Virus record (IMG/VR): IMGVR_UViG_3300020426_000391
Strand: one strand, 5' to 3'
Origin: a virus
Lineage: Duplodnaviria; Heunggongvirae; Uroviricota; Caudoviricetes
Length of the DNA: 24,770 nt
Shown: in pieces, positions 8,309 through 24,075 of the stretch
How the letters are laid out: each line of letters opens with the position of its first letter
How positions within the stretch are numbered: position 1 is the first letter of the stretch
Program-made: the position numbers and the translations under genes
Notes under the pieces: model-generated
Database searches by the model: none
Told to the model about the DNA's origin: nothing
The model's input: the letters and a program-made list of their open reading frames with translations, nothing else

Positions 8309-9172
8309 TCACTTCGGGTCGTATTCGATGTGGATGTGGTTGGACGGGTTGTTCGTTCCGTAGTTCTCCCACATCACGTCATAGTTCGCACCGAGTGCGG
8401 CCTTCAGCGAGACCGCCCACTTGAGACAGCTGTTGACCGAATAGCCGTTGGCGGTGTTGCACCGGATATCGATCGCCCGCCCGCTGTTGTGGAGAGAAGA
8501 CCCGCCGCGGTCGTCCTGTCCGGAGGTCATGACCGCATCGAGACCCATCATCCTTCCGGTGATGTTGATCTCGTCGATTATCATGACGATCGAGGAATGG
8601 AGGCCACCGAGCTTGTTCACTTCGGTGTTCTTCACGGCCATCCTCTGGCCACCGATCGTCCTGATGCTCGTGCCGGCCGGATTGCGCGGTTGTGGGTAGC
8701 TCTTCACCTCGCGCAGGTTCTGCATCGAGTATCCGCGCGTCAGCTGCGCCACGTGGAAGCGGCCGCTCACCCTGACGTTGTTCGGATCGGGATTGCGTAG
8801 ATACTGACCGGCGGAGAGTTCGTTGCCTCCTCCGGTGGAGGGCGGGGTGGGCGTGGGAGTGGGATTCGGAGTGGGAGAGGGCGGGACGGGCTGCACCACG
8901 GGATTTCCGGTGAAGACCGGATCCGGCTGATCCGGATCACCTGTTCCCGGTTCTCCGGGGGTTCCAGGCTGTGCAGGGCCTCCTGACCCGCCACCAGCAT
9001 CGGTTCCGGGATTGCTCGACGCCGGAGGGTCGATGCCCATGTCCGACATGATCTGGGCGCACTCCTCGTCGGTCGGCATCGGCAATGCCTGCGCGTGCGC
9101 CAGCGACGGAAGACCGATCGCGAGCGTGAATGCCGAGGCCCTCATGAGCCATTGTGTCCTGGAGGATTTCAT
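8309..9172 (-). CDS. Secreted M15-like (Hedgehog/DD-peptidase fold) zinc peptidase with Pro/Thr/Gly linker, 287 aa
   Basis: Signal peptide ending AHA-Q; PG/PT-rich linker; C-terminal MTSGQD...SLHNSGRAIDIR (H-x6-D) and NHIHIEYDPK (HxH) zinc-ligand pattern. Confidence 0.8.
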   Translation of the reverse strand: MKSSRTQWLMRASAFTLAIGLPSLAHAQALPMPTDEECAQIMSDMGIDPPASSNPGTDAGGGSGGPAQPGTPGEPGTGDPDQPDPVFTGNPVVQPVPPSPTPNPTPTPTPPSTGGGNELSAGQYLRNPDPNNVRVSGRFHVAQLTRGYSMQNLREVKSYPQPRNPAGTSIRTIGGQRMAVKNTEVNKLGGLHSSIVMIIDEINITGRMMGLDAVMTSGQDDRGGSSLHNSGRAIDIRCNTANGYSVNSCLKWAVSLKAALGANYDVMWENYGTNNPSNHIHIEYDPK

Positions 9173-9207
9173 CGAGCGCCTCGCCTCTACCTTTGATACA
9201 GACGATC

Positions 9208-9236
9208 CTTATAGGATGCATTTTCGATTCGATGAA
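9208..9236 (-). promoter_or_regulatory. Putative sigma70-type promoter TTCATC-N17-TATAAG
   Basis: Lies in the AT-rich gap upstream of the M15 gene, with canonical 17-nt spacing. Confidence 0.4.
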
Positions 9237-9244
9237 AGATATTT

Positions 9245-10399
9245 TCAGGATGAACTGCGATCTTTCATGAGACGCAGGGCATCGGGACGCCGCAAAAGCC
9301 CCGTCCTCCGCTCCGATTCTGCTGGAAGGGGAACGGAAAGCACCGGTCCCGGTCCAGGGCGGAGATCGCATCCTATCTCCCTTCCCCATCCGAATCCGGA
9401 ACTGCCCTCATGGGCGCGATCGATAATCGCCTCGCTTCCCCGCAGGAGCCAGTGATCCATCAGGGAGTCCAGCCGCCGGCCTGCCATTCTCGGCATTGCA
9501 GTGCGTAGGGTTTCCGGGAGGCGGTGTCCGGTGAGGACCACGGAATGGTCGTCCCATTGGATCCTCTCGACGGATTGGTCATCGGGTATGATTGCGGCAT
9601 TGGCGAAGACCCTGTGTCCTATGGATCTGATGTTTAGATCGATCCGGTTGCCCTTACCGGTGATCTTTATCGTCGGTTTCCAGTCGAGGACGTATCCGAT
9701 CGTCTCGGCGTCCGTCCACATGCCCCATGCGGCAAGAGCTCCGGCGAGATCATCGGGAGACGCCTTTTCGTATTCCTCTCTGCTGCATTCCCAGAAATCA
9801 TCGAAGGCCGTCGCCTCACTCCAGTCATGGTGGGTCCTGTTCCTCAGGACCGCGACCAGTGCCCGCGCGGAAACGGGGGAGAATCCCACGGGGATGCTGC
9901 GTTCCCTCCCGGCTCCGAACTCGAGTGCGATGCGGGTGTTGACGGCGTGCTCCAGGAGTCCTTCGGTCTGCTCTAATATCTCGGAACCGTCGATGAGGTC
10001 GCCCCAGGGGGCGGTGTCCATGCGCGCCGGGTAGAGGACCACCTGCTCTTCCAGCGCGTCGAGCCGCAGATGGATCTTCGCATAGAGCGCTTCATTGGTC
10101 TCCAACATGCGGAGACTCTGCCATCCGAGCGGAGATTCGAGCGTGAAGAGATAGCGTGGAATCCTCTTCTGAGCGGTTCCCTCGTTGGCGCCGGGTATTA
10201 CGATTACCTTCCCGCCTATGGCGTCGAGCATCCACTTGATGGCGGTCAACGATGCGGCCGGGCTCGTCCGATTGTCACGCCTGTCCTGCCATCGCTGCGT
10301 GAAGGACCGCATCCGCGCGATCATCCCGACGGCGATGGCGCGTGTCTCCTGCTCAAGGAGCAGGGCGTCCATCTCATGGGTGTCGCGCGGTTGTTCCAT
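9245..10399 (-). CDS. Hypothetical protein, shared C-terminal module family (member 5), about 384 aa
   Basis: Start moved to the ATG at 10399 (SD GAAGGA). C-terminus QWDDHSVVLTGHRLPETLRTAMPRMAGRRLDSLMDHW. Confidence 0.78.
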   Translation of the reverse strand: MEQPRDTHEMDALLLEQETRAIAVGMIARMRSFTQRWQDRRDNRTSPAASLTAIKWMLDAIGGKVIVIPGANEGTAQKRIPRYLFTLESPLGWQSLRMLETNEALYAKIHLRLDALEEQVVLYPARMDTAPWGDLIDGSEILEQTEGLLEHAVNTRIALEFGAGRERSIPVGFSPVSARALVAVLRNRTHHDWSEATAFDDFWECSREEYEKASPDDLAGALAAWGMWTDAETIGYVLDWKPTIKITGKGNRIDLNIRSIGHRVFANAAIIPDDQSVERIQWDDHSVVLTGHRLPETLRTAMPRMAGRRLDSLMDHWLLRGSEAIIDRAHEGSSGFGWGREIGCDLRPGPGPVLSVPLPAESERRTGLLRRPDALRLMKDRSSS

Positions 10400-10410
10400 G
10401 GGTTGTCCTT

Positions 10411-10599
10411 CTACATGACGAGACGCGCGCCGAGGGACTCGAGTATTCCCCGTGCCTCCTCGATGTCGGGGTGATCCGAATTGCGCAGTCCGAGATTCCG
10501 ACCGAGCCACTGGATGTCCCTTTCGTCGGCGATCTTCGCCTTCTCGTTCGGGACATCCATGTTCGTCAGCAGGGTGCGCAGTCTGTCCATGTCTGCCAT
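10411..10599 (-). CDS. Small hypothetical protein, about 62 aa
   Basis: SD GAAGGAAAAC before the ATG at 10599. MADMDRLRTLLTNMDVP...WLGRNLGLRNSDHPDIEEA exactly fills the gap after recD2. Confidence 0.7.
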   Translation of the reverse strand: MADMDRLRTLLTNMDVPNEKAKIADERDIQWLGRNLGLRNSDHPDIEEARGILESLGARLVM

Positions 10600-10610
10600 G
10601 GTGTTTTCCT

Positions 10611-12776
10611 TCATCCTTGTTCGATCAGCTCCTTGAGCCGCGTATTGCGCAGATTTCCGTCGTCGAAGGAGACAGCCTGTCGTATGGCGCGCTTCTGGCC
10701 GATCACGTAGCAGCGCAGCTTCGCCCGGGTGATACCCGTGTTCAGCAGGGTGCGACGCAGCAGCTTCCAGTGCGATGTGGTCATGGGCATGACGACGACG
10801 TCGTATTCCGAGCCCTGTGCCTTGTGGACGGTCAGGGCCCATGCGAGAGCGAGTTCGCTCATCTGACCGCTCGTGTAGTCGAGGCGTCGCGGACCCGAGG
10901 GGGTCTCGATCTCGACGGTGGCGACCTGGTCCTTGCCCCGGCCCCGGATGGCCACGATCTTGCCGACGTCGCCGTTGAAGACATCGCGGCCGTCGCAGTT
11001 CTCGAGCTGGATCACTTCGTCACCGACATGGGCAGGCGCTCCGCCAGCGAGGCGGACGAGGGGATCGCTTTCCGTCGACTCGATGGCGAGACGTTCGTTG
11101 AGGGCGCTGGTGCCGGCTTCCGAGGCATGACCGGGCGTCAGGATCTGCACCTTGTTGCCCTGCGAGGTCTCCTTCAGGAAGATGCGTTCGACCTCCTTGG
11201 CGATGTCCTCGTTGTCGCGCTTCTCGATGAAGATGAGATCGTGACCCCATTCGGGCATGCGCCCCTCGCAGATCGCATCGGCACCGGCAGCGATAGCGGA
11301 GCCCTCCGTCTGACGCCTGTTCTCGGTCAGCTCCACGGTCGGGACGTTGCCTGCCGCGACGAGATCACCGAACACCCGGCCAGGACCGACCGATGCGATC
11401 TGGCGGGCATCACCGATGAAGAGGATCTGTGCCTCGCCCCATGCGCGACTGAACGCACCTGCGAGGTAGATGTCCAGCATGGAGGTCTCGTCGATGGCAA
11501 TGGCGTCGGCCTCGATCGGGTTCTCGTCGTTGTGCGTGAAACGCCCGTCGCTGCTGCCAAGCATCCGGTGCATGGTCTGCGCCCGGACGCCGGTCTTCTC
11601 CCGCATGCGTTGTGCGGCCTTGCCGGTCGGAGATCCGAGGTCGATCTTGCGCCCGAGCTCCTTCCAGCACCGCACGATGATGTCGAGCACCGTGGTCTTC
11701 CCGCGGCCGGGACCGCCCGTGATCACGCATAGCGGCTCGATCACGGCCATGATCGCCGCTTCGCGCTGGAGTTCGTTGAGTTCGATGCCGACTTCGCGTT
11801 GCTTGCGATCGACGATCTCCTCCGCCTCCTCTCGGGTGGCGAGCTTTTCGCAGGCGAGCTTGGCCAGGATCGCCCGTGCGACATCCGTCTCCTTCCAAGA
11901 GAGCTTCTGCAGGGCCCACCCCTTCTGGCCATTGACGTCGACGATGACAGCGCCGCCGCATGCACCCTGATCGAAACTGCGTGCGATCAGGGAGGCAGGC
12001 AGATCCGTGAGTGAACTCGTCTGCTGGACGATGTCGTTGACAGGCATCCAGCTGTGACCCTCGTCCTCCGCCTGTCTCAGGACGTCGCGGGCCGCCGCCA
12101 TGATCCGATGGTCGCTTTCCTTGTTCATTCCGGCGTTGGCGGCGATCTGGTCCGCAGTCCGGAAGGCGATGCCCTCTACTTCCATGATCAGACGGTAGGG
12201 ATCCTTCTCGATCACGCGCCCCGTCTCCGTTCCGAAGGTCTCGTAGATCTTGACACGTGTCTGTCGCCCGATGCCCAGTTCGGTGAGCTTGGGCCCGAAC
12301 TTCGCTTCGCCGTAGCGCGAGGTCAGGGCCGCACGCACGGCATCGTAGCGCTTGGCGAGGAGTTCCTTGGCCAGCGGATCCCCGCGCACGATGCGTTCGA
12401 CCGCATTCTCTCCGAGCCTGTCCGCGATGGCGGCTGCGCGGGCCTTCCCGATGCCTTCGATGCCCGCCTCGGAGATCCATTTCGCGAGAGCCTCGGTCGA
12501 ATCGAGCGGAGCGCTGATGACGCGCGCGTCGAACGCCTGGAGCTGGCTGCCGAAGCGGGGGTGGTTGGTCAGGCGCCCCTTCACCTCGAGCTTGTCGCCG
12601 ATGCCGAAGCCGACGAGGACACCGCGGCCCTTGATTGACATCTTCGATCCGTCGGCGAGTCGCAGCGAGAGGATCGCGAAACCGTCCGAGGTCGGGCCGG
12701 AGATGTAGCGCTCCACCTTGCCGGTGTAGGTCTTCGTGGCGGTGGCTGGGTTCGTCTTTCGGACTGCCTGGCTCAT
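10611..12776 (-). CDS. recD2: ATP-dependent RecD-like (RecD2) SF1B DNA helicase, 721 aa
   Basis: N-terminal OB-like and HhH-type segments (IEGIGKARA, DPYRL..EVEGIAFRTAD); Walker A ITGGPGRGKTT; DETSM; IGDARQIASVGPG; LTENRRQ; ALTVHKAQGSEY; TGITRAK. Confidence 0.95.
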   Translation of the reverse strand: MSQAVRKTNPATATKTYTGKVERYISGPTSDGFAILSLRLADGSKMSIKGRGVLVGFGIGDKLEVKGRLTNHPRFGSQLQAFDARVISAPLDSTEALAKWISEAGIEGIGKARAAAIADRLGENAVERIVRGDPLAKELLAKRYDAVRAALTSRYGEAKFGPKLTELGIGRQTRVKIYETFGTETGRVIEKDPYRLIMEVEGIAFRTADQIAANAGMNKESDHRIMAAARDVLRQAEDEGHSWMPVNDIVQQTSSLTDLPASLIARSFDQGACGGAVIVDVNGQKGWALQKLSWKETDVARAILAKLACEKLATREEAEEIVDRKQREVGIELNELQREAAIMAVIEPLCVITGGPGRGKTTVLDIIVRCWKELGRKIDLGSPTGKAAQRMREKTGVRAQTMHRMLGSSDGRFTHNDENPIEADAIAIDETSMLDIYLAGAFSRAWGEAQILFIGDARQIASVGPGRVFGDLVAAGNVPTVELTENRRQTEGSAIAAGADAICEGRMPEWGHDLIFIEKRDNEDIAKEVERIFLKETSQGNKVQILTPGHASEAGTSALNERLAIESTESDPLVRLAGGAPAHVGDEVIQLENCDGRDVFNGDVGKIVAIRGRGKDQVATVEIETPSGPRRLDYTSGQMSELALAWALTVHKAQGSEYDVVVMPMTTSHWKLLRRTLLNTGITRAKLRCYVIGQKRAIRQAVSFDDGNLRNTRLKELIEQG

Positions 12777-13291
12777 CGTCTTTTTCCTTCTTCGATCTGA
12801 ATGCTGTTTCCACTTCCCTCAGGAAGCGGTTCCGGCCATTTCCGCCATGTCGGCGGTGTGGGCTCGAGTATGATTCTGGTGCCGTTCGGCAGGTGCTCCA
12901 CGGTCTCTGCCCTGATTTTCCCTTCTCCGAGGATGGTCCGTCCGAGACACCTTTCGACTCCTCTTCCCGTCATGCCCAGAGCGAGAGACGCGGGGATCTG
13001 CGCGAGCAGCGTGATTGCCTGGGTCGCGTTGTATGGGCCGAGCACGGCCCGGCCCAGTGCGCTACCGAAGGTCGCGATGGGCATGCCGACCCTGTTGCCC
13101 GTGAGGCTCACTGTGCCTTCGAGCGGCAAGCGGACGCCATCGGGGATGAGAAGGGACGTATCGGTATCGAGGGATATCCGCCCGCCCCTTCCGAACCGGG
13201 CCACGTCGAGAGCCCGTCGGTGAAGAGCGGCGAGCATGTAGGCCTCGTCGATTCCCGCTTCTATGATGATTGTATCGAGGAGGCCCGTCAT
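12773..13291 (-). CDS. Hypothetical protein, shared C-terminal module family (member 6, short), about 172 aa
   Basis: SD GGAGG before GTG-ATG (13291); ATGA overlap with recD2. Contains AITLLAQIPASLALGMTGRGVERCL. Confidence 0.7.
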   Translation of the reverse strand: MTGLLDTIIIEAGIDEAYMLAALHRRALDVARFGRGGRISLDTDTSLLIPDGVRLPLEGTVSLTGNRVGMPIATFGSALGRAVLGPYNATQAITLLAQIPASLALGMTGRGVERCLGRTILGEGKIRAETVEHLPNGTRIILEPTPPTWRKWPEPLPEGSGNSIQIEEGKRR

Positions 13292-13311
13292 CACGAACGT
13301 GCCTCCTGCCC

Positions 13312-13800
13312 TCATAGGGGCTCTCCCTTCCATCGATGGAGCCGCCGGAAGGCTTCGTCCGGATGTGTCCTGACGTGGCTCCAAGCGGAACGATGGCATT
13401 CGAGACCGGCATTGCTGTAGGCGCTCTCGTCCAGGTTGAGGACCGGGTTCATTCCGTCCCTCAGGCATCTCTCGATGACGAGCTCCATACCCAGCCCCCT
13501 TCCTCGATGCGGCTCGTCCACGACGAGATCGCATGACAGGTAGCCTCCCGCGATGTCTCCTCGCGGGCAGATCAGCAGGACGCCGGCCGGGACGTCCCGG
13601 AAGCTGTATCCGGGCTCGAAGAGCGAAGGATACGACGCATCGCCGTCATCGGCGATTATGTCCTCCGGTGCGTATCGGGAGAAATCCTCAAGCAGCTGTG
13701 AGAGGCTCTTGGCGAAGATGTCGTCAATATCGAGGCGTCCTTCCTCCCCTTCGAGGAATTCGTCTTCGGAGAGGTCGAAGGGCTCCGGGAATCCAGTCAT
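13312..13800 (-). CDS. GNAT-fold acetyltransferase-like protein, 162 aa
   Basis: Acetyl-CoA-binding motif A pattern LVVDEPHRGRGLGMELV, later AYSNAG; strong SD GGGGAGG. Confidence 0.6.
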   Translation of the reverse strand: MTGFPEPFDLSEDEFLEGEEGRLDIDDIFAKSLSQLLEDFSRYAPEDIIADDGDASYPSLFEPGYSFRDVPAGVLLICPRGDIAGGYLSCDLVVDEPHRGRGLGMELVIERCLRDGMNPVLNLDESAYSNAGLECHRSAWSHVRTHPDEAFRRLHRWKGEPL

Positions 13801-13814
13801 TTTCCTCCCCTTTC

Positions 13815-13843
13815 ATGATGTTCGCTGGCGATTGCGGTCGCAA
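13815..13843 (-). promoter_or_regulatory. Putative sigma70-type promoter TTGCGA-N17-CATCAT
   Basis: The -35 box overlaps the U-tract of the preceding terminator; the -10 box fits the relaxed alphaproteobacterial xAxxxT pattern; directly upstream of the GNAT SD. Confidence 0.35.
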
Positions 13844-13864
13844 AAAAAGGAGGTTCCCCTCCTT
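13842..13864 (-). terminator. Rho-independent terminator
   Basis: Minus strand reads AAGGAGG-GGAA-CCTCCTT-TTTTT, starting at the stop codon of 13864..14748. Confidence 0.7.
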
Positions 13865-14748
13865 CAGTGGTATGCTTCCACGGCGACGAGGCTTCTGTGG
13901 TCTTCCGCCGTGGTCCTTATCGTGATCTCATCCTCATCCGTTGATATGGAGGTGATCTTCACGCCCAGGCCGGTGGCGGGGTGGTTCTCGATGAGGTGCT
14001 CGATGGGTCTTCCGACCATGGCGCTCCGTATCGTGTCCGGAATGCGCTGCTTGAGATGTATGCGTCCCTCGTGCTCGCCGTATCGGCCCATGTCGCTGAG
14101 GATCAGGTTCCCGATGCGCCTGGCACCTTCGAAGGGCAGTGTATCGGACTGGATCCGCCCCTTCATGAGCTTCGCGAAAGAGGTGCACCTATCCGTTGGT
14201 TCCCTGCTCGCCATGTCGATTGTGCATGCCCCGATGACGAGTGGGTCGACGAGCATCACGTAGCTCGCACTGTCGCGCAGGGCAGGCAGGCAATGCCTTA
14301 TCCGGGCTTCGTGCCTGTCGATCGCGTCGGCGATATCGAACGCCAGTCTCTCCATCTGCTGCCGGGACGTGGGGGTTGTCACACCGTCAAGGCTCCCTCG
14401 CAGTACGTCGAGATTCCATCTCTTCCTTTCCGAGGCTTCCATCAAAGCGCGGCACTGTCTTTCCATGTTGACCTTGTCCGAGATGCCTCCGGCCTCCTGC
14501 TTCAGGAGCGGTGTCACCCCGTCTCTCACCTCGATGGTGTGTCCGGCTACGCCGATGGCGAGCCCGGTGTCCGCACGTATGCTTCCGAGTTCCTTCCACA
14601 TCTCCTCGGAGATGTCTTTGAAGCGTCTCCCGTCATTGTCGCCCTTGTAGGCGCCCCATAGGGATATGACGGCCCTGCACACCCTCTCGATCTGGTCAGT
14701 CCTCCGCCCGACCTTTCCCGACGGCCCGTGTTCGCTCCATGGGATCAT
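13864..14748 (-). CDS. Hypothetical protein, shared C-terminal module family (member 7), about 294 aa
   Basis: ATGA coupling at 14745-14748. C-terminus HEGRIHLKQRIPDTIRSAMVGRPIEHLIENHPATGLGVKI. Confidence 0.78.
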   Translation of the reverse strand: MIPWSEHGPSGKVGRRTDQIERVCRAVISLWGAYKGDNDGRRFKDISEEMWKELGSIRADTGLAIGVAGHTIEVRDGVTPLLKQEAGGISDKVNMERQCRALMEASERKRWNLDVLRGSLDGVTTPTSRQQMERLAFDIADAIDRHEARIRHCLPALRDSASYVMLVDPLVIGACTIDMASREPTDRCTSFAKLMKGRIQSDTLPFEGARRIGNLILSDMGRYGEHEGRIHLKQRIPDTIRSAMVGRPIEHLIENHPATGLGVKITSISTDEDEITIRTTAEDHRSLVAVEAYH

Positions 14749-15602
14749 GGTCGTTCTCCGTTGGGATATGGTGGGGGCCTGAGTTCGATCAGCTGTCGGG
14801 GTTGCCAGGCATCGGTGTGGAGATGGAGCAGGCCACTCTGGTGATGCGTCATCCTCGTGACGTTGATGTCGAGGGATCTGCATCCTTCGAAATCCAGGAG
14901 CTCGGCTAGGCCTACGTTCCTGCGCAGCGTGATGCTGTCGGGGATGCGCGCATCTATCGGGACGATGTCCTCGCGAACGTCTCCGTCCCTGTCGACATGG
15001 AGAAGGTTCATGGTCCTCTGAACTCCCAGGAGAGAAAGAGCCCTCCTTGACCATCTGTCCTTCTGCTGGGACAGCCTCTCCTCGGCCATGCGGACGAGGA
15101 TCTGGATGGTTCTGTTCCTCACGCTGCGCCCCGTTGCGCGCGCCAGGACGAGGACGGCCATCCTGTCCGCCAGGAAGACATCGTTCCTTTCATGGTGCCG
15201 TGCGATCCCGTGGAGTGCCAGACACAGGCTCGTGGCCGCTGCCGCTTGCCTCCTCTCGTCAGCCCACTGCGTCACGGGAACACGACCTCGTCCGATCGCC
15301 TCGGCCGCCTTCGTGAACCGGTGCTGCATCTGGATGCAGCCTGCTTCGCTCTTGGGCATTCTCAACGTGAACACCTCCTTGTCGGGAAGGTGGACATGGA
15401 GGTAGGCGCTCTTCTCTCCGTTGTTGAAGTGCGAACTGACCCCTCCCATCGCTTTGGTCAGATCCTCACGGATCCGCGCGATGCTCGGAAAGTCGTGCCA
15501 GTATCCGTGGAGGAAGCGATTGATCAGGAGAACCACTTCGTCCAGTTCACGGTGATATCTCTCGTATCTTCCGGCCGGGAGCAGATGATCGATATCGTTC
15601 AT
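14745..15602 (-). CDS. Hypothetical protein, shared C-terminal module family (member 8), 285 aa
   Basis: ATGA couplings at both ends. C-terminus VREDIVPIDARIPDSITLRRNVGLAELLDFEG (lacks the G[RK] pair). Confidence 0.75.
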   Translation of the reverse strand: MNDIDHLLPAGRYERYHRELDEVVLLINRFLHGYWHDFPSIARIREDLTKAMGGVSSHFNNGEKSAYLHVHLPDKEVFTLRMPKSEAGCIQMQHRFTKAAEAIGRGRVPVTQWADERRQAAAATSLCLALHGIARHHERNDVFLADRMAVLVLARATGRSVRNRTIQILVRMAEERLSQQKDRWSRRALSLLGVQRTMNLLHVDRDGDVREDIVPIDARIPDSITLRRNVGLAELLDFEGCRSLDINVTRMTHHQSGLLHLHTDAWQPRQLIELRPPPYPNGERP

Positions 15603-16558
15603 CCGGAATTCTCCATGTTCATCACCATGGCTGTCAGCCTGGCGCGTCCGCAGGCGTCCGTCCGGATGCCGCTCACATTACCTTGCGATGTCGAATAGGT
15701 CTCCACGCGCTCGATCATGAGACCCAGGCCATCTGTCATGGGATGCTGGATGGCCTGCCTGAGTGGTTTGTCGGTGTATCCCGCCGCCTGGGTCTTGGTC
15801 ATCTCGAAGCGGAGCTTGACCGTGCCATCGGTGATGTAGTCAATCTGGGATCCGCCGAAGAATGACACGACCGAACGGGCGGAACCGTTCTCGATCGTTA
15901 TGGCTATGCTGCGGAGATCCGGGATGTCGCTCCCGTTGATCTGGTATTCCTCTCGCAGCAACGGACCATCGCCATGTTCCGTTACGATGCGCTGGAGGGT
16001 CCTTCTGGCCTTCTTGAGGTTGTCGGCCTCGTTTCCCCTGAGGGCACCGGCGAGGACGGCGTCATCCAGTATCACGTTGCGTCCCTCGTCCTCGCGGTCC
16101 TCCCTGGCTTCATGTATGAAGGCGAGCAGACGCAAGGTGATCGGATCGACGTCGAGGGTCAGGTATCGTGTACCTGGGGCCTGTCCCCTCTTCTCGCGCT
16201 CCAGCGCCCAGGCCATCATGGCCAGTTCCTTCACCTGACCGGCGGCGCGTTCGAAGTCGCCGTCGGGGGTCTCGCCCTCTTCCCACTTCGAGAGGATCCT
16301 GGCGATCTCCTCGTGGGTGGTGATCAGGGCCTCCGTGGAGGTGTAGTAGAGGATCTGCGGATCGGGGCTGATGTCACTGGCGTATCCGGCTTCGTAGTGC
16401 CAGGCATTCCCCTCCTGATTCAGCCTGCTGACTAGCCTTTCCAGGCTGCCACCCTCGTTTGCGAGTTCGAGCGTGCGTGTCACGCATTCCCCGATCTGGC
16501 GCATGTGGGCACGCAATCGTGCCGCATGTCCTAGTCGAGGCATGGTGGCTATGCTCAT
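15599..16558 (-). CDS. Hypothetical protein, shared C-terminal module family (member 9), 319 aa
   Basis: SD CAGGAG. C-terminus ITDGTVKLRFEMTKTQAAGYTDKPLRQAIQHPMTDGLGLMI. Confidence 0.78.
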   Translation of the reverse strand: MSIATMPRLGHAARLRAHMRQIGECVTRTLELANEGGSLERLVSRLNQEGNAWHYEAGYASDISPDPQILYYTSTEALITTHEEIARILSKWEEGETPDGDFERAAGQVKELAMMAWALEREKRGQAPGTRYLTLDVDPITLRLLAFIHEAREDREDEGRNVILDDAVLAGALRGNEADNLKKARRTLQRIVTEHGDGPLLREEYQINGSDIPDLRSIAITIENGSARSVVSFFGGSQIDYITDGTVKLRFEMTKTQAAGYTDKPLRQAIQHPMTDGLGLMIERVETYSTSQGNVSGIRTDACGRARLTAMVMNMENSG

Positions 16559-16627
16559 CTCCTGTCTTGCCTGAGGATATCCGTATCATGGATCGGCGCA
16601 TCGGGTGCTCCGTCCTTTTTCCGTTTC

Positions 16628-17029
16628 TCATCCCTTCTCGTATTCGAGGACGATGAGGGGTATGGGGATGTATCTCGTGGTCGTCGCCTTGCTTCCCCGG
16701 ATGACGGCATCCGAGAGGAAGGGGGCGACGTCATCGGGAAGCGATATGACATCCGCTATGCGTTTGCCATGCAGATTCCCTTCCACGAAGAACGTATCGG
16801 GCATGGTGAGACCGGTTATCGTGACACTCGATTGGATGCCTAAGGCCGAGATTGTCTCCTGCCAGGCCATCCGGTCTCGTGACATGCGGATGTGTCGACG
16901 AAAGGTGCTGTTCCGATATCGGATCCCCCAACCATCGGCGAAGAAGTCGGCCTTCGCGTCTTCCATGCTGCGACCTGTGTTCTCGATGATCGTCCGCAGG
17001 TAGGCGCTGAGGGCGGTCTCGGGTATCAT
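16628..17029 (-). CDS. Hypothetical protein, shared C-terminal module family (member 10, short), 133 aa
   Basis: ATGA coupling. C-terminus SSVTITGLTMPDTFFVEGNLHGKRIADVISLP. Confidence 0.72.
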   Translation of the reverse strand: MIPETALSAYLRTIIENTGRSMEDAKADFFADGWGIRYRNSTFRRHIRMSRDRMAWQETISALGIQSSVTITGLTMPDTFFVEGNLHGKRIADVISLPDDVAPFLSDAVIRGSKATTTRYIPIPLIVLEYEKG

Positions 17030-17268
17030 TTTTCGTCGTTCGACGAGCGGTATGCGGCATCGATCTGCCGCCGGGTGACGATGCCCTCGATCAGGAAGTC
17101 AGCCTGTTCGTCTCGCCGATCGAAGCGGACGATGATGTCGTCGATCAGCTCCTTGCGCGTCTCCTCGGAGAGATGCGGGATGTTCGATATGCTGTTGAGA
17201 CGTTGCCGGAACTCTTCCTTGTATGCCTCGTCGCCGAGTTTCTCGATGTATTTCGCGTTCTTGTTCAT
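17026..17268 (-). CDS. Small hypothetical helical protein, 80 aa
   Basis: SD AAGGCGG; charged helical sequence; ATGA overlap with the next gene. Confidence 0.7.
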   Translation of the reverse strand: MNKNAKYIEKLGDEAYKEEFRQRLNSISNIPHLSEETRKELIDDIIVRFDRRDEQADFLIEGIVTRRQIDAAYRSSNDEK

Positions 17269-17303
17269 TGCGACCGCCTTGATGTCCGTTGTCGATGCGA
17301 GAT

Positions 17304-17331
17304 CGCGGGGGAGCCGATCGGCTCCCCCGCG
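17304..17331. repeat. Perfect 28-bp palindrome
   Basis: CGCGGGGGAGCCGATCGGCTCCCCCGCG is its own reverse complement. It lies 6 nt after the ATPase stop and has no U-tract on either strand. Confidence 0.85.
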
Positions 17332-17337
17332 TGATGC

Positions 17338-18564
17338 TCACAGATCGATCTTGATCAGCGGGCCGTCCATGGCCTCGTCGCTGATCTCGGCCGAGTGCTT
17401 GGAGAAGTTCTTGCTGATGTCCTTCTCCGGCACGTTGTGCTCGCGAAGACGCTTGAGCATGACCTCGATGATCGCCGGCTTCATCTCCTGGAAGGGAAGC
17501 TTGTTCTTCGACTCCGGGAAGGCGTCCATCAGCATGGTGATGTCCTTGCCCGTCTCGACGTCCTTGGGATAGGCCATCATCGAATAGGTCAGCGCGTAGA
17601 GCTGCGAGATGTCCTTCGGCCACAGCTGGCTGAGATCCTTGCCCTTCTTCGCGGCCTCGATGATGTCGAACAGTGCGGTCATCTTCGTCACGATGTCGAA
17701 GGTGGCCATGAACTGCTTGGCGATGCCGGTGCCGACCTTGCCGGAGACCATGGTCTCGAGCGCGTCGCGCTTGGCGTCGTCGGTGTAGTCCGCCGGGTTC
17801 TGCATGATGGAGCGCTCCTGCACCGAGACGTGCTCCCAGCTGCGCGGATTTCCGTAGAGGTCCTGCTTGGCCTGCAGGGCCTCCTCGGTCATGCAGAACT
17901 GGCCCATGTTGTTCTTCAGGTAGGCGACGACCGTCGGCGTGATGTTGGCGCCGGGGGCGTAGTCGTGCATCCAGCTGGTGAAGTCGGCCACGATCCGCAT
18001 GGTGTTGAAGCGGGTCCGGGTGGCGTTGTCGAGCTCGAACACCATGGTTCCGGTCTCGGACTCGTTGCCGCCTGCCATGACCAGGCAGTTGTCAGGCAAC
18101 TGGCGACCGTTGAGTTCGCGATCGAGGAAGACCCCGAAGAGCGGCTTGCGAACGCGGTCGTCGGCCGAGGCGAGCTCGTCGAAGAAGAGGATCGTTCCGT
18201 CGTAGGGCTTGCCTTCCTCGTTCAGTCGTTCGTTGCCCTCGGAATCGAGCACCTTGCCGTCCGGACTGGGAAGCCAGTAGGGCGCGAACCAGTCGGTCGT
18301 GTGCGTTTCCATGTTGGGCATGCGGATGCCGCCGGCGTCGTCCGGGCTCATCTGGTTGGCGCGGATGTCTTCCATGTAGTAGTTGAGCGCCTTGGCGATG
18401 CGCTTCGCGATGGAGGACTTGCCGACGCCCGGCTCGCCCTCGAGATAGTGCGACTGGATGTGGACGGACTTGTCCTCCTTGCGCAGGCGCATGTTGCCCA
18501 GGAACATGTAGGTGATCTGGTTGATCGCCTTGCCGGGGACGATGTTGCGTGCGTTGATCGTCAT
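17338..18564 (-). CDS. MoxR-like AAA+ ATPase, 408 aa
   Basis: Walker A LEGEPGVGKS, Walker B ILFFDE, sensor-1 VMAGGN, arginine finger LDNATRTRF, NPRSWE. Confidence 0.9.
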   Translation of the reverse strand: MTINARNIVPGKAINQITYMFLGNMRLRKEDKSVHIQSHYLEGEPGVGKSSIAKRIAKALNYYMEDIRANQMSPDDAGGIRMPNMETHTTDWFAPYWLPSPDGKVLDSEGNERLNEEGKPYDGTILFFDELASADDRVRKPLFGVFLDRELNGRQLPDNCLVMAGGNESETGTMVFELDNATRTRFNTMRIVADFTSWMHDYAPGANITPTVVAYLKNNMGQFCMTEEALQAKQDLYGNPRSWEHVSVQERSIMQNPADYTDDAKRDALETMVSGKVGTGIAKQFMATFDIVTKMTALFDIIEAAKKGKDLSQLWPKDISQLYALTYSMMAYPKDVETGKDITMLMDAFPESKNKLPFQEMKPAIIEVMLKRLREHNVPEKDISKNFSKHSAEISDEAMDGPLIKIDL

Positions 18565-18618
18565 TCTTTTTTCCTTCCTGATGGAAATCCGTGTCTATTC
18601 GTTCGTGAGGCAGGCCGC

Positions 18619-20268
18619 TCAGGCGGCCTTCTTGATGCCTCCGCCCATGTAGTCCGGGAGATTGATGATCTCTCCGGTGCCTTCGAGTCCCTGCGAGGTT
18701 CCGCCCTGCGTGATCATCCAGATCAGCTTGAGACCCTCGGTGTTCTCAGGCGGGCTGAGATATCCGTCGGTCATGATGATGCAGGCGCGATAGGGCGTCC
18801 GCATCTCCTTGATCTCCTTGAAGACGTTGCCCATGACGGTGCCGCCGCCACCCGTGATGCCGTCTTCGAGCAGCTTCGAGAAGTCGCTCTTCGACTTGAT
18901 CTCGATCTTCTGCTGCACGTTGTGATCGAAGGTGACGACATCGACCGCGGCGTTCTTCATCTTGGCGATTGACCAGACCTCGGCGAAGCACTGGTTCAGC
19001 TCGCTGAGATGACTCCCGGAGACATCCAGGATCACGAGGACACGCGGACGTTCGGAAAAGATCGTCGTGCCCGGCTGATAGGGTGCCCTGCGGCGCATCG
19101 CGAGCGAGGCCCGGGTCGACGCACCGAAGCGCGTATAGCTGTCATCGAGCTTCGTCCCCAGTTCACGCGTGACGGTCTTGCGCAGGAAGTGATCCCACGG
19201 AATGACTGCTTCCGGCAGATCGTTCTCGAGTGCGAGAAGCATGTTGCCGGAGCCGATGCCCTGCATCTTGAGACCCTGGATGATCGCCTGGATCTTCCCG
19301 CGCGCCTCGTCGATCTCACCGTTCGCCTTGGCGATCAGGTCGTTGATGTTGGCGCCATTCTCCAGCAGTTCGCGGATCTCGTCGAGCGAATCGGCCAGAT
19401 CCCACGCCTCCTCGGTCCGCACGATGCGTTCGATCTGTGTCTCGTCCGAAGGGACGTCGGCCTCGCAGCCGCACTGGGAGCCGTCCTCGTCCTTCTGATC
19501 CTCCTGTCCGGAGCCCGATCCGCTGCCATCCTGTTCGGTGGCCTCGTTCTCCTTGTCGGACTGGCCCGAGCCTTGTCCTTCCTGTTCGCCCGGGTCACCC
19601 TCTCCGGATCCGGAACCGCCCTGCGTCTGACCGCGCTGGCCGCTCTGGCCCTTCTGGCCCTGGCCCTGACCCTGTTGGGCCTGCTGGGCCTTGTCCGCCT
19701 CGCGCTTGCGCTGCACCGCGCTGTGGGCCCACACGAGCCAGTCGTAGACGGTCTCCATCTGGAGATTGAGACGCGCTTCCTTGTCGTAGCCCTCAGGCGG
19801 CTTCTCGCCGGTGAAGTCGATCGCCTCCTTGATGATGCCGTGAATGGTCTTCATGGTGATGCCGGGGAAGTCCTTCGGCATCGCGATCTGGTTCGTCTTG
19901 GCCATCGTCTCCTCGTTGATGGCCTCGTTGATGATGGCATCTGCCGCATAGTTCGGCAACGGCTGGATGATCACGCCCTTCTGCAGGAGGAGCAGTTTCG
20001 TCCGGGTTGGGTGACGGAAGATGCCGTGCATCATCTCGTGGAGGAATATGTAGTTGCGACCGGACTGCTCGATCTCTTCGTACTTCTTCCCGTACCATAC
20101 GGTCGTGCCATCGGTGCAGGCGATCATGCCGGGGTCGTTCGCGATCTGCGCGGCGCGGTGTGCGCCTGCCTTCTTGTGCTGGAGCATGAAGGCCAGGCCG
20201 ACCATGTGAGGCATCCACAGCAGGATGGCCTTCTGCTCGCGACTCACGTCGTGTTCGAACTTGCTCAT
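18619..20268 (-). CDS. HExxH metallopeptidase + vWA-like domain protein (DUF2201-type), 549 aa
   Basis: ACTDG; FLHEMMHGIFRH; NYAADAIIN; Q/G/S/E-rich linker; C-terminal MIDAS-type ILDVSGS, GGGGT, MTDGY. Confidence 0.9.
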   Translation of the reverse strand: MSKFEHDVSREQKAILLWMPHMVGLAFMLQHKKAGAHRAAQIANDPGMIACTDGTTVWYGKKYEEIEQSGRNYIFLHEMMHGIFRHPTRTKLLLLQKGVIIQPLPNYAADAIINEAINEETMAKTNQIAMPKDFPGITMKTIHGIIKEAIDFTGEKPPEGYDKEARLNLQMETVYDWLVWAHSAVQRKREADKAQQAQQGQGQGQKGQSGQRGQTQGGSGSGEGDPGEQEGQGSGQSDKENEATEQDGSGSGSGQEDQKDEDGSQCGCEADVPSDETQIERIVRTEEAWDLADSLDEIRELLENGANINDLIAKANGEIDEARGKIQAIIQGLKMQGIGSGNMLLALENDLPEAVIPWDHFLRKTVTRELGTKLDDSYTRFGASTRASLAMRRRAPYQPGTTIFSERPRVLVILDVSGSHLSELNQCFAEVWSIAKMKNAAVDVVTFDHNVQQKIEIKSKSDFSKLLEDGITGGGGTVMGNVFKEIKEMRTPYRACIIMTDGYLSPPENTEGLKLIWMITQGGTSQGLEGTGEIINLPDYMGGGIKKAA

Positions 20269-20429
20269 GATTTTCCTTCTCTATCGCGTATTCGCGAACG
20301 ATGAATTCCAAGGGGGATTCTGGACGGTGCGGAGGCCGCTGTCACCCGTCCGTTTTCCCTTCATGGAAAAAAATTCACATGGATGTCATTTTTATGTTGC
20401 GTTATGATTCGGACCATCCTAAAAACACT

Positions 20430-20747
20430 TCTGAGGCCACGGAAGGCCCCTTCCTCCGGGAAGAGGTTCCTTCCTCCCTTCGGGGAGGGCCCCGCCGCTC
20501 CTTCGGGAGTTGCGAGGTTCCGGCAGCGTCTCCTTCGGGAGACGCCGATCCGAGGTCTTACGGTGACATGGGAGGATTCGCTTCCCCCTGCTGTCCACCG
20601 TGTCGGCCAGGCTGGTAGCCGCCGCCGACGTTCCGGCCCGAGGGCTTGCCCCGCGGACCGCGCGCCAGGCACGGCTCACGTCGCACTCGCTGCGGCAGGT
20701 CAGGTCAACGGAAGGCCCGATGCTTCGGCATCGGGCCTTCTTCGTTT
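20430..20747 (+). ncRNA. Candidate structured non-coding RNA, about 320 nt, family unknown (5' end approximate)
   Basis: Occupies the only large intergenic gap. Hairpins with C(UNCG)G loops at 20450-20463, 20473-20488, 20493-20514, 20526-20545 and 20711-20740; further stems at 20560-20601 and 20602-20629. G-U pairs form only on the plus strand. AT-rich 5' flank with TATGAT at 20403-20408. Confidence 0.55.
20711..20747 (+). terminator. Terminator-like hairpin (possibly also acting on the convergent minus-strand gene)
   Basis: Perfect 13-bp stem GAAGGCCCGATGC-TTCG-GCATCGGGCCTTC followed by TTCGTTT on the plus strand; abuts the stop codon of 20747..21631. Confidence 0.7.
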
Positions 20748-21631
20748 CAGGGTCCGGTGGGAATGTCTATCCTGCGCCTGACGGGTGCTCTGCCCCGATT
20801 GATCAGGAAGGTGATGGTTGAATCGGTGTTCCTGCGGCTCATGCCCCGGATGACCATCGATTCGTCCCGGTATCCGTCGATGTCCACGATCTCGTGCAGC
20901 GGTCTGCCGATGTAGACGTTCTCCTGCTTTAGGACCTCCGGCAGGCTGTCGACCTTGATCCGGATCTCGTCCCCGTCGATGGTGAGCGGATCAGTGCTGT
21001 GATTGGCGGTGATCGTGATGCCGCGTCGGACCGTGCCCGGGAGCTTCGACCATTCGAGACCGGTTTCTGCGATTGTCGTGATCGCACGTCTGATGACCTC
21101 CGTCCTCGTCCGTTCGTCTGCGTCATCGGCTATCTGCAGGTTGTCATCGATCCGATCGCACGAACCGGATATCAGGTGGATGGAGAGGGTGTCGGTCTCC
21201 ACTATGTCGATGTGCCACGGGATCATGCCCTTGAACCCGGCCTTCCTGATCAACTCGGCGAGCCGTTCGCCATGAAGCTTCTTCATGTGCATGTGGATGA
21301 CATGGGAATCGACATCCCGGAAGCGCTCCCATCGTGCGGGCAGGTCAAGGTCACGGGTCCAGTCCCTCAGCTGTGCCACCTGGTGATCATGGCCCGTCCT
21401 GTCCGTGCTGATGTCCAGCTTTCCATCGATTATGTCGAATATGACCGTGTGACCGGTCTCCGAGCGTTCGCATTGTCTCGGACCGATGCCGAGGAGGCCT
21501 GCGATCTCCTGGACCTCATCGGAAGTGATTGCCCGATCGGGTGCGGAGAGGATCTCCCCAAGCCTGTCGTAGATGATTGCCAACTCGTCGCGGTGTTCCG
21601 CGCGCCAGCTCTCGAGGATGGTCTCCATCAT
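20747..21631 (-). CDS. Hypothetical protein, shared C-terminal module family (member 11), 294 aa
   Basis: SD GAGGAGG with ATGA coupling. C-terminus IDGDEIRIKVDSLPEVLKQENVYIGRPLHEIVDIDG. Confidence 0.78.
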   Translation of the reverse strand: MMETILESWRAEHRDELAIIYDRLGEILSAPDRAITSDEVQEIAGLLGIGPRQCERSETGHTVIFDIIDGKLDISTDRTGHDHQVAQLRDWTRDLDLPARWERFRDVDSHVIHMHMKKLHGERLAELIRKAGFKGMIPWHIDIVETDTLSIHLISGSCDRIDDNLQIADDADERTRTEVIRRAITTIAETGLEWSKLPGTVRRGITITANHSTDPLTIDGDEIRIKVDSLPEVLKQENVYIGRPLHEIVDIDGYRDESMVIRGMSRRNTDSTITFLINRGRAPVRRRIDIPTGP

Positions 21632-22305
21632 TCCTCCTCCTGGTCCCAGTCTTCATCGTCCTCGTCCTCGTCTCCGATGAACTCCATCGTGAGACGGGCG
21701 ATGCGGCCATCGGGAGTCATTGTCTTCTTCAACTGGTATTCGCCGTCGCCCCATCCGGTATCCGTCACGAGGATGCGATCGCCGATCATGCCGATGCCGT
21801 CGTCATGGCACTTGCACAGCCCGTTGTAGCTGACCTTGAGATCGTCTTCGTCGATCTTCACCGGCTCCCATTCCCCGCTCGCGTTGAGCTGGTTCATGGT
21901 CTGCCCTCCCTCGGAGGGGATGGCAGCTTCGTAATGCGGGAAGTCGACACAGTATTGGAGCGTCCGGCCATCGGTCTTGTGACGGTAGACGCGGATGTTC
22001 TTGTATTCCTCTTCCTCCCATCGCGCGCAGAACTCGGCGGCATCCGCGAATACGAGCTGCGCGCTGTCGACTCCGAGCTCCTTTATGACCTCGGGTCGTC
22101 CGTCGTCCTCCTGGAAGAAGACGAGGCTGATGGAGGCGACCCTTCCTTCCTTCTCGGTGTGCTCGACGATCGCGGTATTGGGAACGCGGAGCTCGATGTA
22201 GTCCTCGTCGGGCGGATTGCCGGAGGCGATCGCGTCGATCTCGTTCCGATCGAAGTAGCAGGGGTCACCGATGAGGAGACGTCCGCTGGAGATGCACAGG
22301 ATCAT
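21628..22305 (-). CDS. DUF4241-like protein, about 225 aa
   Basis: SGRLLIGDPCY, GVDSAQLVFAD, TGWGDGEY. Start moved to 22305 (SD GGAGG). Confidence 0.7.
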   Translation of the reverse strand: MILCISSGRLLIGDPCYFDRNEIDAIASGNPPDEDYIELRVPNTAIVEHTEKEGRVASISLVFFQEDDGRPEVIKELGVDSAQLVFADAAEFCARWEEEEYKNIRVYRHKTDGRTLQYCVDFPHYEAAIPSEGGQTMNQLNASGEWEPVKIDEDDLKVSYNGLCKCHDDGIGMIGDRILVTDTGWGDGEYQLKKTMTPDGRIARLTMEFIGDEDEDDEDWDQEEE

Positions 22306-22330
22306 GAATTTTCCTCCACTTGAAATATCT

Positions 22331-22540
22331 TCAGACGAACATGTTAATCTGGTTGGGATCGCGCTTCGCTTCTGCGGCCGCTGCGCTGATGGCTGCATTG
22401 TTGCGTGCCATCTTGGCCTTCCCGGCCAGGCGCCTGAGCGCATCGGCGGTCCTCTCGTTCTCGTCGGTCCTGTCGGTGGTCTCGAGACCGGCCGCAGCGA
22501 GACGTGCCGCGAAGGCGGCTCCGGTGGTTGTGCTGCTCAT
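22331..22540 (-). CDS. Small Ala-rich hypothetical protein, 69 aa
   Basis: Purine-rich SD AAGGGAAAAAGG; fills the gap between co-oriented genes. Confidence 0.65.
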   Translation of the reverse strand: MSSTTTGAAFAARLAAAGLETTDRTDENERTADALRRLAGKAKMARNNAAISAAAAEAKRDPNQINMFV

Positions 22541-22583
22541 CCTTTTTCCCTTCTCTGCCGAAGTCCTGCTTCGGTCGTCGCCT

Positions 22584-22838
22584 TCACTCGTTTCCCAGAG
22601 CGGTGAACCTGTCGTCTTCGCTGGCGGGCCTCAGAAGGAGGCTCTTTTCATGGGGATGGACATGGAGCCAGGCGCGCAACGGTCCGCGTGGATCCTCGTA
22701 TGGCTGCTTCGTCTCGGCGTCCTGCGCAATGCCGAGATCCCTGTAGAGTCCACCCTTGCGGTGCTGATGCGTCGCTTCCGGTGCAAGGTCCTTCAGTTCT
22801 CGATGGCTCTTCCCGATCAGTTTCTCATGCGGCTTCAT
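22584..22838 (-). CDS. DUF1653-like small protein, about 84 aa
   Basis: THQHRKGGLYRDLGIAQDAET...LLRP...RF resembles the DUF1653 pattern (H.KG..Y...G.A..SET...W.RP...RF). SD GAAGGAAG before the ATG at 22838. Confidence 0.55.
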   Translation of the reverse strand: MKPHEKLIGKSHRELKDLAPEATHQHRKGGLYRDLGIAQDAETKQPYEDPRGPLRAWLHVHPHEKSLLLRPASEDDRFTALGNE

Positions 22839-24075
22839 ATCGGATTCTTCCTTCGTCCTTGAGCGATCCACGGATACCCTGACGGGCTCGCTTGACGGAT
22901 CTGATTATCATGTCGTCGGTTATGCGCGGGTGCTCCACGAACTCACGGAGACGCTTGCCGACCATGGCCTCCATGGTCGCATGTGGTATCTCGACCCTCG
23001 GCAATTCGAAGGTGGCGTTGAGAAGGCGCAGGATGCGTCTCTTGTCCTTCTCCACGATGAGTTCGCCCCCGATGACGCCATCCCGGATGACCAGCTTCTC
23101 GCGTGTCCTGAGGTCCCCGTTGGTATGCGTGCGCCATTTCGTGATCTTCCTGGGGTCGCGTCCGTTGTTCTCGAGGATGGCCTTTCCCAGGCTGGTGATG
23201 ATCGTTCCGCGCCCCTTTGCGAGAGCGTGTCGCTTGGCATGGAGCCTTATCTTGGTCTCGATCTCGCTCAAGGTTTCCTTGTTGGGCTGTGGCGCTTCCA
23301 GATGAGGATGGACCTCCATGGTGGCCAGGATGCAGTCGGAGAACGGCTCCAGCATGGAATCAAGGGTCTCGATCTCGATGAGGCCTTCGCGCCACGAGGG
23401 GAATCTGAAACCGTATGGAGGAAGTGGCGCATGGAGGTCGCGCATCTCCTCGATCTCACGGGTGAGGCGCTCCTTGGCGAGATCGATGGCGGCATCGGGG
23501 CTTCCGGGTATTCCTCTCTCCCGCATGATGATCCCCTCGGCCATGCGGTCGGCGGCATGACCTCCGTCCGCATGTGAGCGTGTCCTCACGGTAATGGTTA
23601 TCTGTCTTCCGTCCGGTTCCCATCCCTGAAGGCAGGCGAAGACCCTGCGGATGTTTCCGTGGACCTGGACTTCACGCAGGTGGATGCGTCTTCCTTCTTC
23701 GTGCCCCGGGGCGGCTCCGGGATCATGAAGGCCGATCTCGTTGCCGTATTCGACCTTCCAGCCCCTTTCCTCGAGGCGCCTCTTCCATATCGAGAGATCG
23801 TGCTCCTGCTCTTGGATTATCGAGCCGTCCGCGAGGATGTGGAGGCTCGCCTTCGCACCCCTTTCTCCGTAGGAGAGATGGTTCCCCTCCAGGATAACCT
23901 CCTCTCCTGCCAGATGCGCTCTCCCGCGGGCCAGCGGCTGGGAGAAGTCATGTTTCCTTATGAGGCAATGGAAGTCCCTGACGAGCGTTTCCGTAACGTG
24001 GTCCGAGTGCAGGAGGGCCTTCAGGACCTCCCTCGCCGTGGCGGATGTGCCGACGAGGGAGGAGTCCATGGTCAC
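22825..24075 (-). CDS. Hypothetical protein, shared C-terminal module family (member 12), 416 aa
   Basis: ATGA coupling. C-terminus LLNATFELPRVEIPHATMEAMVGKRLREFVEHPRITDDMII. Confidence 0.8.
   Translation of the reverse strand: MTMDSSLVGTSATAREVLKALLHSDHVTETLVRDFHCLIRKHDFSQPLARGRAHLAGEEVILEGNHLSYGERGAKASLHILADGSIIQEQEHDLSIWKRRLEERGWKVEYGNEIGLHDPGAAPGHEEGRRIHLREVQVHGNIRRVFACLQGWEPDGRQITITVRTRSHADGGHAADRMAEGIIMRERGIPGSPDAAIDLAKERLTREIEEMRDLHAPLPPYGFRFPSWREGLIEIETLDSMLEPFSDCILATMEVHPHLEAPQPNKETLSEIETKIRLHAKRHALAKGRGTIITSLGKAILENNGRDPRKITKWRTHTNGDLRTREKLVIRDGVIGGELIVEKDKRRILRLLNATFELPRVEIPHATMEAMVGKRLREFVEHPRITDDMIIRSVKRARQGIRGSLKDEGRIRYEAA

Follow-up and report, generated by a model that had tools for sequence, protein, structure and literature searches.

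The stretch of DNA analyzed here, hereafter the window, is a 24,770-nt record of a virus of the Caudoviricetes (IMG/VR, IMGVR_UViG_3300020426_000391). All genes of the window lie on the minus strand, and a gap of approximately 480 nt (20269-20746), flanked by two of these minus-strand genes, contains a predicted RNA gene that reads in the opposite, plus direction (Table 1). On one side, the gap is bordered by the gene for a DUF2201_N metallopeptidase and vWA-like protein, which is accompanied by the gene for a MoxR-like AAA+ ATPase. The same pair of MoxR and peptidase-vWA genes was found in group 2.2 jumbo phages, and a role of the pair in virion assembly was proposed (Iyer et al., PMC7824862). 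The candidate promoter of the DUF2201-MoxR operon is arranged back-to-back with the promoter of the RNA, and both of its hexamers are kept in the window and in four homologous loci (L001, L004, L006, and L010; handles of this type designate the DNA segments compared with the window). Between the two divergent promoters lies a palindrome, TTTTCC-N6-GGAAAA (20353-20370), which may be an operator; related TTTTCC/GGAAAA pairs are also present in L008, L010, and L013. On the other side, the gap is bordered by the gene for a 294-aa protein that has no match in Pfam or PHROG. The AlphaFold model of this protein is confident (pLDDT 90.8) and has an unrecognized fold: no PDB entry was matched at E<=0.001, the AlphaFold DB returned only uncharacterized proteins, and no RNA-binding fold is recognizable in the predicted structure. 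The full 294-aa protein is one member of a group of about 12 ORFs (4178-24075, minus strand) that share a C-terminal module, visible in alignment as ..[LI]P.T....VGR.L....P....G..I....TDA..R; the profile of this module is without a PDB or Pfam match.

Table 1. Features of the RNA locus and its neighbors, with positions in the window. Promoters, terminator, RNA ends, and helices are predictions.
Feature	Position	Strand	Details
MoxR-like AAA+ ATPase	17338-18564	-	Pfam AAA_5 and AAA; phrog_1297 at 3e-60
DUF2201_N metallopeptidase + vWA-like protein	18619-20268	-	Pfam PF13203 at 1.5e-20 and PF09967 at 1.4e-13; phrog_1314; divergent neighbor of the RNA
Candidate promoter of DUF2201-MoxR operon	20317-20345	-	GTGACA, 17 nt, CAGAAT; promoter scan, consensus match only
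RNA promoter region	20385-20426	+	upstream box GTCATTTT, 20385-92; -35-like GTTGCG, 20396-20401; 17-nt spacer; -10-like CTAAAA, 20419-24
Predicted ncRNA, ~315 nt	20433-20747	+	5′ end placed 6-9 nt past the -10 box (+-3 nt); 3′ end at the U-tract after the terminator
Variable 5′ domain	20433-20559	+	candidate helix P1 enclosing hp1-hp4
hp1, CTTCC-TCCG-GGAAG	20450-63	+	UCCG loop
hp2, CCTCCC-TTCG-GGGAGG	20473-88	+	7 bp including the T20472/G20489 wobble (20472-89)
hp3	20493-514	+	UUCG loop
hp4, GCGTCTCC-TTCG-GGAGACGC	20526-45	+	UUCG loop
Conserved 3′ core, 155 nt	20555-20709	+	helices H1-H6
ACGGTG/CACCGT stem	20560-601	+	encloses GGGAGG-ATTCG-CTTCCC
H1	20560-65 with 20596-601	+	
H2 and extension	20567-76 with 20583-93	+	conserved loop GGAGGAWUCGCUUCC
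GTCGGC/GCCGAC stem	20602-29	+	encloses GGCT/AGCC
H3	20602-07 with 20624-29	+	
H4	20610-13 with 20617-20	+	
H5	20635-40 with 20654-59	+	tip GGG-CUUG-CCC, 20642-51
H6	20680-85 with 20691-96	+	
Intrinsic terminator	20710-20747	+	14-bp stem, 20710-23 with 20728-41; UUCG loop; tail UUCGUUU
13-bp perfect inverted repeat (terminator)	20711-23/20728-40	+	read in the sequence
294-aa protein	20747-21631	-	convergent neighbor of the RNA; stop codon 20747-49 abuts the RNA terminator

The region is rich in hairpins. All of those listed in the original prediction were located by direct reading of the sequence, as were its three G-U pairs. The GAGGTTCC linker, which had been proposed as part of a repeated binding unit, indeed occurs twice (20463-70 and 20514-21), but it is kept only in the closest relatives, and the repeated-unit interpretation does not extend beyond them. 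On the plus strand, the region folds with a z-score of -4.2, none of 100 shuffles being as stable, and four of the window's seven plus-strand hairpins with a UUCG loop and a stem of at least 4 bp are concentrated within these 321 nt, i.e., 1.3% of its length. The fold z-score of the only other apparent gap of the window, 13535-13863, is -0.9. This second gap (329 nt, minus strand) is in reality coding; it shows a terminator-like hairpin and a T-run after the stop at 13864, and a good Shine-Dalgarno sequence with an ATG at 13800 opens a 162-aa frame (13312-13800), which overlaps a 253-aa ORF (12773-13534) in a different frame; a frameshift, a sequencing error, or overlapping genes are possible explanations of the overlap.

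Homologous loci were collected as the DNA around twelve relatives of the DUF2201 protein, with one more from a pattern scan. The relatives are graded from 94% to approximately 40% identity and are nearly all metagenomic. Gene order is the same in all untruncated loci, where a gap of 440-550 nt separates the DUF2201 gene from a gene for a protein of about 290 aa, and the gap is kept in all 11 independent loci, even at 47-52% DUF2201 identity (L019, L021, and L023). Lengths of the homologous RNAs range from 275 to 391 nt. The twelve have no ORF in common, and their indels do not come in multiples of three; the putative RNA gene is non-coding. Identity of the RNA core to the window ranges from 0.96 to 0.49, as against 0.69 to 0.37 at the third codon positions of DUF2201, and is the higher of the two values in six of seven pairs: 0.96 vs 0.69 in L004, 0.90 vs 0.59 in L006, 0.88 vs 0.61 in L010, 0.71 vs 0.50 in L008, 0.68 vs 0.52 in L013, 0.55 vs 0.59 in L015, and 0.49 vs 0.37 in L018. 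This difference points to purifying selection on the core. The distribution of the family is very narrow, comprising approximately 10 metagenomic lineages, with nothing found in the IMG/VR, INPHARED, and PLSDB searches. Briefly, a scan with the promoter pattern yielded only two loci in metagenome contigs and none in genome contigs or IMG/VR, protein-based scans of genome contigs and IMG/VR returned nothing, and core patterns in IMG/VR gave either no matches or 10 chance matches, all 10 of which were rejected by the model. No match in PLSDB and INPHARED was obtained by blastn or, with the DUF2201 protein as query, by tblastn. The nearest cultured phage by MoxR is the Sinorhizobium jumbo phage Phosso (30% identity), whose genes are ordered differently and which has no gap of this kind. 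The RNA gene is carried by a small group of uncultured phage-like elements.

The gap alignments show an invariant order of elements just upstream of the structured part, namely GTCATTTT, TTGC, CATCCTAAAAAC, and then GAGGCC, and the -10-like CTAAAA forms part of CATCCTAAAAAC (20415-26). Among nine loci, the promoter boxes do not vary; in the most distant loci, they read TTGC/TTTACA followed by TAAAAA/TATAAA/CATAAA in constant orientation, e.g., TTTACA, an 18-nt spacer, and TATAAA in L023, and TTGCTA, a 17-nt spacer, and CATAAA in L021. At the other end, the stem of the terminator shows compensatory changes in L008, L013, L015, L018, L019, and L021, and the T-tract is on the plus-strand side only in 12 of 12 loci. 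The terminator of the window was missed by a simple terminator scan because a CG interrupts its T run. Position and orientation of promoter and terminator, as recognized by consensus and conservation and with a predicted start site, are conserved in 12 loci. The extended -10 box CATCCTAWAA has one further copy in the window, before the gene at 8309-9172, where 0.01 would be expected by chance, which suggests a promoter class common to strongly expressed units of the element. Upstream of the two-gene unit that starts at 9172 (minus strand) lie CATCCTATAA (9209-18), which is the extended -10 box of the RNA promoter again, and a second, similar box, CATCCTGAAAAT (9241-52). At a contig end (L012:1-338), CATCCTAWAA occurs twice (7-16 and 180-189) together with a repeated upstream segment, to be explained either by tandem duplication of the promoter region or by an artifact of assembly. 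Furthermore, the window (20712-20722) and L023:3566-3627 share one sequence, AGGCCCGATGC, for the 5′ arm of the terminator, although their DUF2201 proteins are only approximately 52% identical and the L023 element is AT-rich in contrast to the GC-rich window; this identity exceeds what pairing would need.

The comparative model of the RNA comprises 87 pairs, 71 of which are also present in the unconstrained minimum free energy structure, and the constrained optimum lies within 5% of the free optimum. Two parts can be distinguished. The 5′ part is an array of three to six hairpins among the homologues, most of them UUCG-capped; L004 has no counterpart of hp1, and L008, L013, and L016 carry extra hairpins. 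The commonest tip, UCC-UUCG-GGA, is found in 12 of 39 hairpins. The array is tentatively closed by helix P1, in which the invariant 5′ GAGGCC (20433-38) faces GGUCUU (GGTCTT in the DNA, 20554-59) just before the core; P1 is kept by three one-sided transitions (G-U/G-C) in L013 and L015, and its alternative would be a pairing of the 5′ end with the segment that precedes the terminator. The 3′ part is the core, whose helices H1-H6 were derived by hand from compensatory changes and then encoded as a covariance model. Its 3′ single strand, CCAGGUCAAC, is conserved, and the conserved GGCUUGCC is most simply explained as the G(CUUG)C tip of H5, a pseudoknot with GGCARGYC having also been considered. 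In each locus, the core models (R1 and R2) detect a single copy, which lies on the expected strand, and L018, which had been left out of training, was recovered at E 5e-5. In the model-guided alignment, 87.6% of the cells of the core are paired vs 79.3% in shuffles (0 of 500 shuffles reach this value), and pairing falls to 35-54% when the partners are slid by 1-3 columns as a control. The covariation among homologues that was called for as a check of the original prediction was found: both sides are changed in 18 of 37 core pairs vs 8.1 in shuffles (again reached by 0 of 500). A pair of H5 may serve as an example, being a C-A mismatch in the window, C-G in L001, and U-A in L004 and L006. The covariation, which was assessed in an alignment of approximately seven independent lineages fitted to the model and is below R-scape grade, is suggestive of selection on the pairing. 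Three positional equivalents, the most distant ones (L019, L021, and L023), escape the core model; promoter, terminator, and a strong fold are kept in all three, and UUCG and CUUG caps in L019 and L021. These loci are either products of fast sequence evolution or analogous units.

Folding energy alone is uninformative on the choice of strand: the minus strand of the region has a z-score of -5.1, and good folds are obtained for either strand of all 12 homologues. With all genes on the minus strand, and with the minus strand folding at least as well in GC-rich members, the hairpins could belong to the polycistronic message as an intercistronic or 3′UTR/5′UTR element that stabilizes or regulates it in the manner of REP sequences. 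We consider this improbable, since the complementary loop of a UUCG cap is CGAA, which has no special stability, and UUCG-capped hairpins number 39 on the plus strand and none on the opposite strand among the 12 homologues; when UUCG, UNCG, GNRA, and CUUG loops are taken together, the count is 51 vs 4. Many of the UUCG hairpins differ between lineages in the sequence of their stems, so that selection has acted repeatedly on the cap in the RNA. The preference for the plus strand that had been deduced from G-U pairs extends to the core helices of the homologues, which contain 26 G-U pairs as against 8 A-C mismatches; on the minus strand, the 26 would become A-C mismatches themselves. Moreover, promoter boxes and T-tract face the plus direction, the conserved candidate promoter of DUF2201 lies downstream of the structure, and there is a single copy per locus, unlike REP elements. 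The direction of promoter and T-tract, the excess of G-U pairs, and the asymmetry of the UUCG caps are three independent lines that point to the plus strand. The same features bear on a function at the DNA level, such as a replication origin or single-stranded DNA hairpins of the ssi or Frpo-type promoter kind. The region is intergenic and hairpin-rich, has divergent promoters, and adjoins an AT-richer stretch (GC 0.50-0.55, 20200-20500), as might be expected of such an element; however, tolerance of G-U pairs and RNA-specific tetraloops speak for RNA, there are no iterons (the repeated boxes are only short repeats at chance level) and no G-rich skew for an R-loop origin, and the carrier looks phage-like rather than conjugative, which makes this reading very improbable.

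Taken together, the gap very probably holds a real RNA gene. Comparison among the loci supports a plus-strand transcription unit that is non-coding and whose structure is under selection, and the conserved promoter, one-way terminator, covariation, strand asymmetry of UUCG caps, and lack of a conserved ORF agree with the earlier proposal of a stand-alone plus-strand RNA transcribed divergently from the vWA-MoxR pair. With its own promoter and terminator, its non-coding sequence, and its compensatory changes, the candidate would belong to the class of stand-alone bacterial or phage ncRNA genes.

The comparison with known RNA families was likewise in line with the original prediction, which had failed to match the RNA to tRNA, tmRNA, RNase P, SRP, 6S, an intron, or a riboswitch. 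Searches of Rfam 15 at gathering thresholds returned no match in the window and none in the 12 homologous loci (116 kb), and a permissive search of the window gave only scattered matches of 18 bits or less. The RNA might be a divergent member of a described family, and the only Rfam family with any recurring signal is ar35 (RF02346), for which the homologues L023 (33.0 bits, E 5e-5) and L013 (20.2 bits) gave subthreshold matches in the correct orientation; the membership level of this 144-position model is at least 45 bits, and genuine ar35 copies on Sinorhizobium meliloti pSymB score 139 and 97 bits. The window itself has no ar35 match at E<=10. In the alignment of L023 with ar35, 48 model positions of the central hairpin (UUGACCACGGAUGUACUGGCAC) are replaced by 10 nt, and the UUGACCACGGAUGUACUGGCAC motif is absent from the RNA of the window. 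Recognition is not reciprocal: the core model R2 finds nothing on the genuine ar35 genes (L024:4631-4767 and L024:7731-7872). With a model of the 3′ module (R3), the two ar35 terminators reach 18 and 14 bits when read on the strand of the gene, one of them reaches 28 bits on the reverse strand, and an unrelated terminator of the window (7655-7709) reaches a similar 24 bits. Membership in ar35 was rejected, and the resemblance is regarded as generic and at the level of the terminator. Like ar35/Smr35B and the trans-encoded alphaproteobacterial sRNAs of the ar/Smr type, the RNA described here is an independent intergenic unit with a promoter of the CTTG..-N17-CTA.A. type, and it shares with ar35 a strong terminator in the style of GGAAGG...CCUUUUUCGUU. 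By contrast, ar35 is approximately 140 nt long vs approximately 315 nt here, its central hairpin is missing here, and its gene neighborhood is another one: the pSymB ar35 genes have no adjacent gene of DUF2201 size, whereas the present RNA is found on a phage-like element. Since the promoters of the genuine S. meliloti ar35 genes (CTTGTT-N17-CTATAT) are of the same type as that of the RNA, an alphaproteobacterial host is likely.

Other families were also considered and rejected. ARAGORN predicted no tRNA or tmRNA gene in the window, and no Rfam tmRNA match was obtained. The CAGGTCAGGTC..GGAAGG sequence of the window resembles the helix 8 sequence of 4.5S RNA, for which a GNAR tetraloop and conserved internal loops are diagnostic; no SRP model was matched at E<=10, and the GGAA at 20710-13 is paired in the terminator stem rather than exposed in a loop. 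Neither Y RNA nor YrlA models gave a match. Dispersed palindromes of the REP/BIME-like kind were dismissed, since a single copy was found at each locus in the window and in approximately 170 kb of related DNA. With no SRP, tmRNA, or Y RNA model match and with the ar35 signal as described, membership in a known family is a very remote prospect.

The RNA, which matches no described family, may act in one of several ways. It is reasonably probable, in our estimate, that the locus encodes an independent, structured plus-strand RNA of approximately 315 nt that acts in trans by binding protein. The RNA, convergent with the upstream gene block, would start from a sigma-70-type promoter of alphaproteobacterial style and stop at an intrinsic terminator of its own. 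It would consist of a plastic 5′ array of three to six very stable UUCG hairpins, serving mainly as a stabilizing, nuclease-resistant body, and of the conserved 155-nt multi-helix core with the terminator; as a long-lived molecule, it would bind at least one protein as scaffold, decoy, or RNP component through its invariant loops and single strands, i.e., the GGAGGAWUCGCUUCC hairpin, the G(CUUG)C tip, and CCAGGUCAAC. Expression and binding are both predicted from sequence features. Given that the RNA gene is real, the stable, trans-acting, protein-binding mode has somewhat below an even chance, and the earlier suggestion of a sponge or scaffold function is a guess.

The main rival to a trans-acting RNA is a cis-acting antisense or insulator unit, in which plus-strand transcription opposes the upstream operon and the RNA product has no function in trans: the transcript would collide or form duplexes with minus-strand read-through and thereby uncouple the upstream block from the DUF2201-MoxR operon. 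The unit always lies between two co-directional gene blocks, and its terminator directly adjoins the upstream gene's stop codon. Minus-strand read-through across the RNA gene is plausible because the hairpin is followed on that strand by CGTTGACC and not by a T-tract. Furthermore, no trans target was found in the window, where complementarity of the transcript to the remaining sequence is restricted to 11-13-nt matches at chance level. Interference, however, does not require a 155-nt core with compensatory changes, conserved loops, and UUCG caps confined to the plus strand, and a bidirectional terminator would be a cheaper means of insulation. We regard such a cis unit as unlikely.

Co-regulation of this RNA with the DUF2201/vWA-MoxR pair is plausible from the fixed divergent arrangement; the association of the RNA with the pair is not independent evidence, because the whole gene block is syntenic. 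A more specific version of the trans-acting RNA is that it forms the RNA subunit of a phage RNP with the peptidase-vWA/MoxR pair, e.g., as a scaffold that gathers the paralogues sharing the C-terminal module for MoxR-driven processing or virion loading, an idea we hold to be a long shot. Three known systems offer points of comparison. GOLLD, ROOL, and the orphan motifs of Rfam are stand-alone structured RNAs of phages and prophages that were found by comparative genomics and whose function is not known. GOLLD and ROOL are, like the RNA described here, stand-alone, heavily structured, and phage-associated; the present RNA has no similarity to the covariance models of these or of the orphan motifs, is far smaller than GOLLD or ROOL, and is narrowly distributed. 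In the Ro60/Rsr-Y RNA modules, which are often phage-borne, the gene for a vWA-domain protein lies beside a structured ncRNA. These modules have reportedly been reviewed by Sim et al. in 2020. The present locus likewise encodes a vWA-domain protein beside a structured ncRNA, but the neighbor is a DUF2201 peptidase-vWA protein and not TROVE/Ro60, ARAGORN finds no tRNA-like module, and the gene order is divergent rather than operonic. Finally, pRNA of the phi29 type, a structured RNA encoded by the phage and provided with a promoter of its own, forms part of a virion-assembly machine. The parallel to a phage structured RNA with a promoter, next to a gene pair proposed for virion assembly, is one of analogy; there is no similarity in sequence or structure, and no packaging genes are nearby.

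If the RNP reading were true, the RNA would be the second assembly RNA, unrelated to that of phi29 (pRNA), and, Ro60-Y RNA aside, the first RNA to partner with a MoxR-vWA system. Giant phages are known to carry tRNAs and translation genes; to our knowledge, structured RNAs with a regulatory or scaffold role have rarely been defined in them. The present candidate is clean and has clear limits, comprising a promoter, a two-domain fold, and a terminator; it has comparative support and can be directly synthesized and tested. Its fixed place beside the peptidase-vWA/MoxR pair, for which virion assembly was proposed (PMC7824862), provides a concrete hypothesis for pull-down experiments. Even with a modest function, the family would constitute a new Rfam-type entry and an unusually clear case of repeated selection of the UUCG cap, as judged from its complete bias toward one strand.
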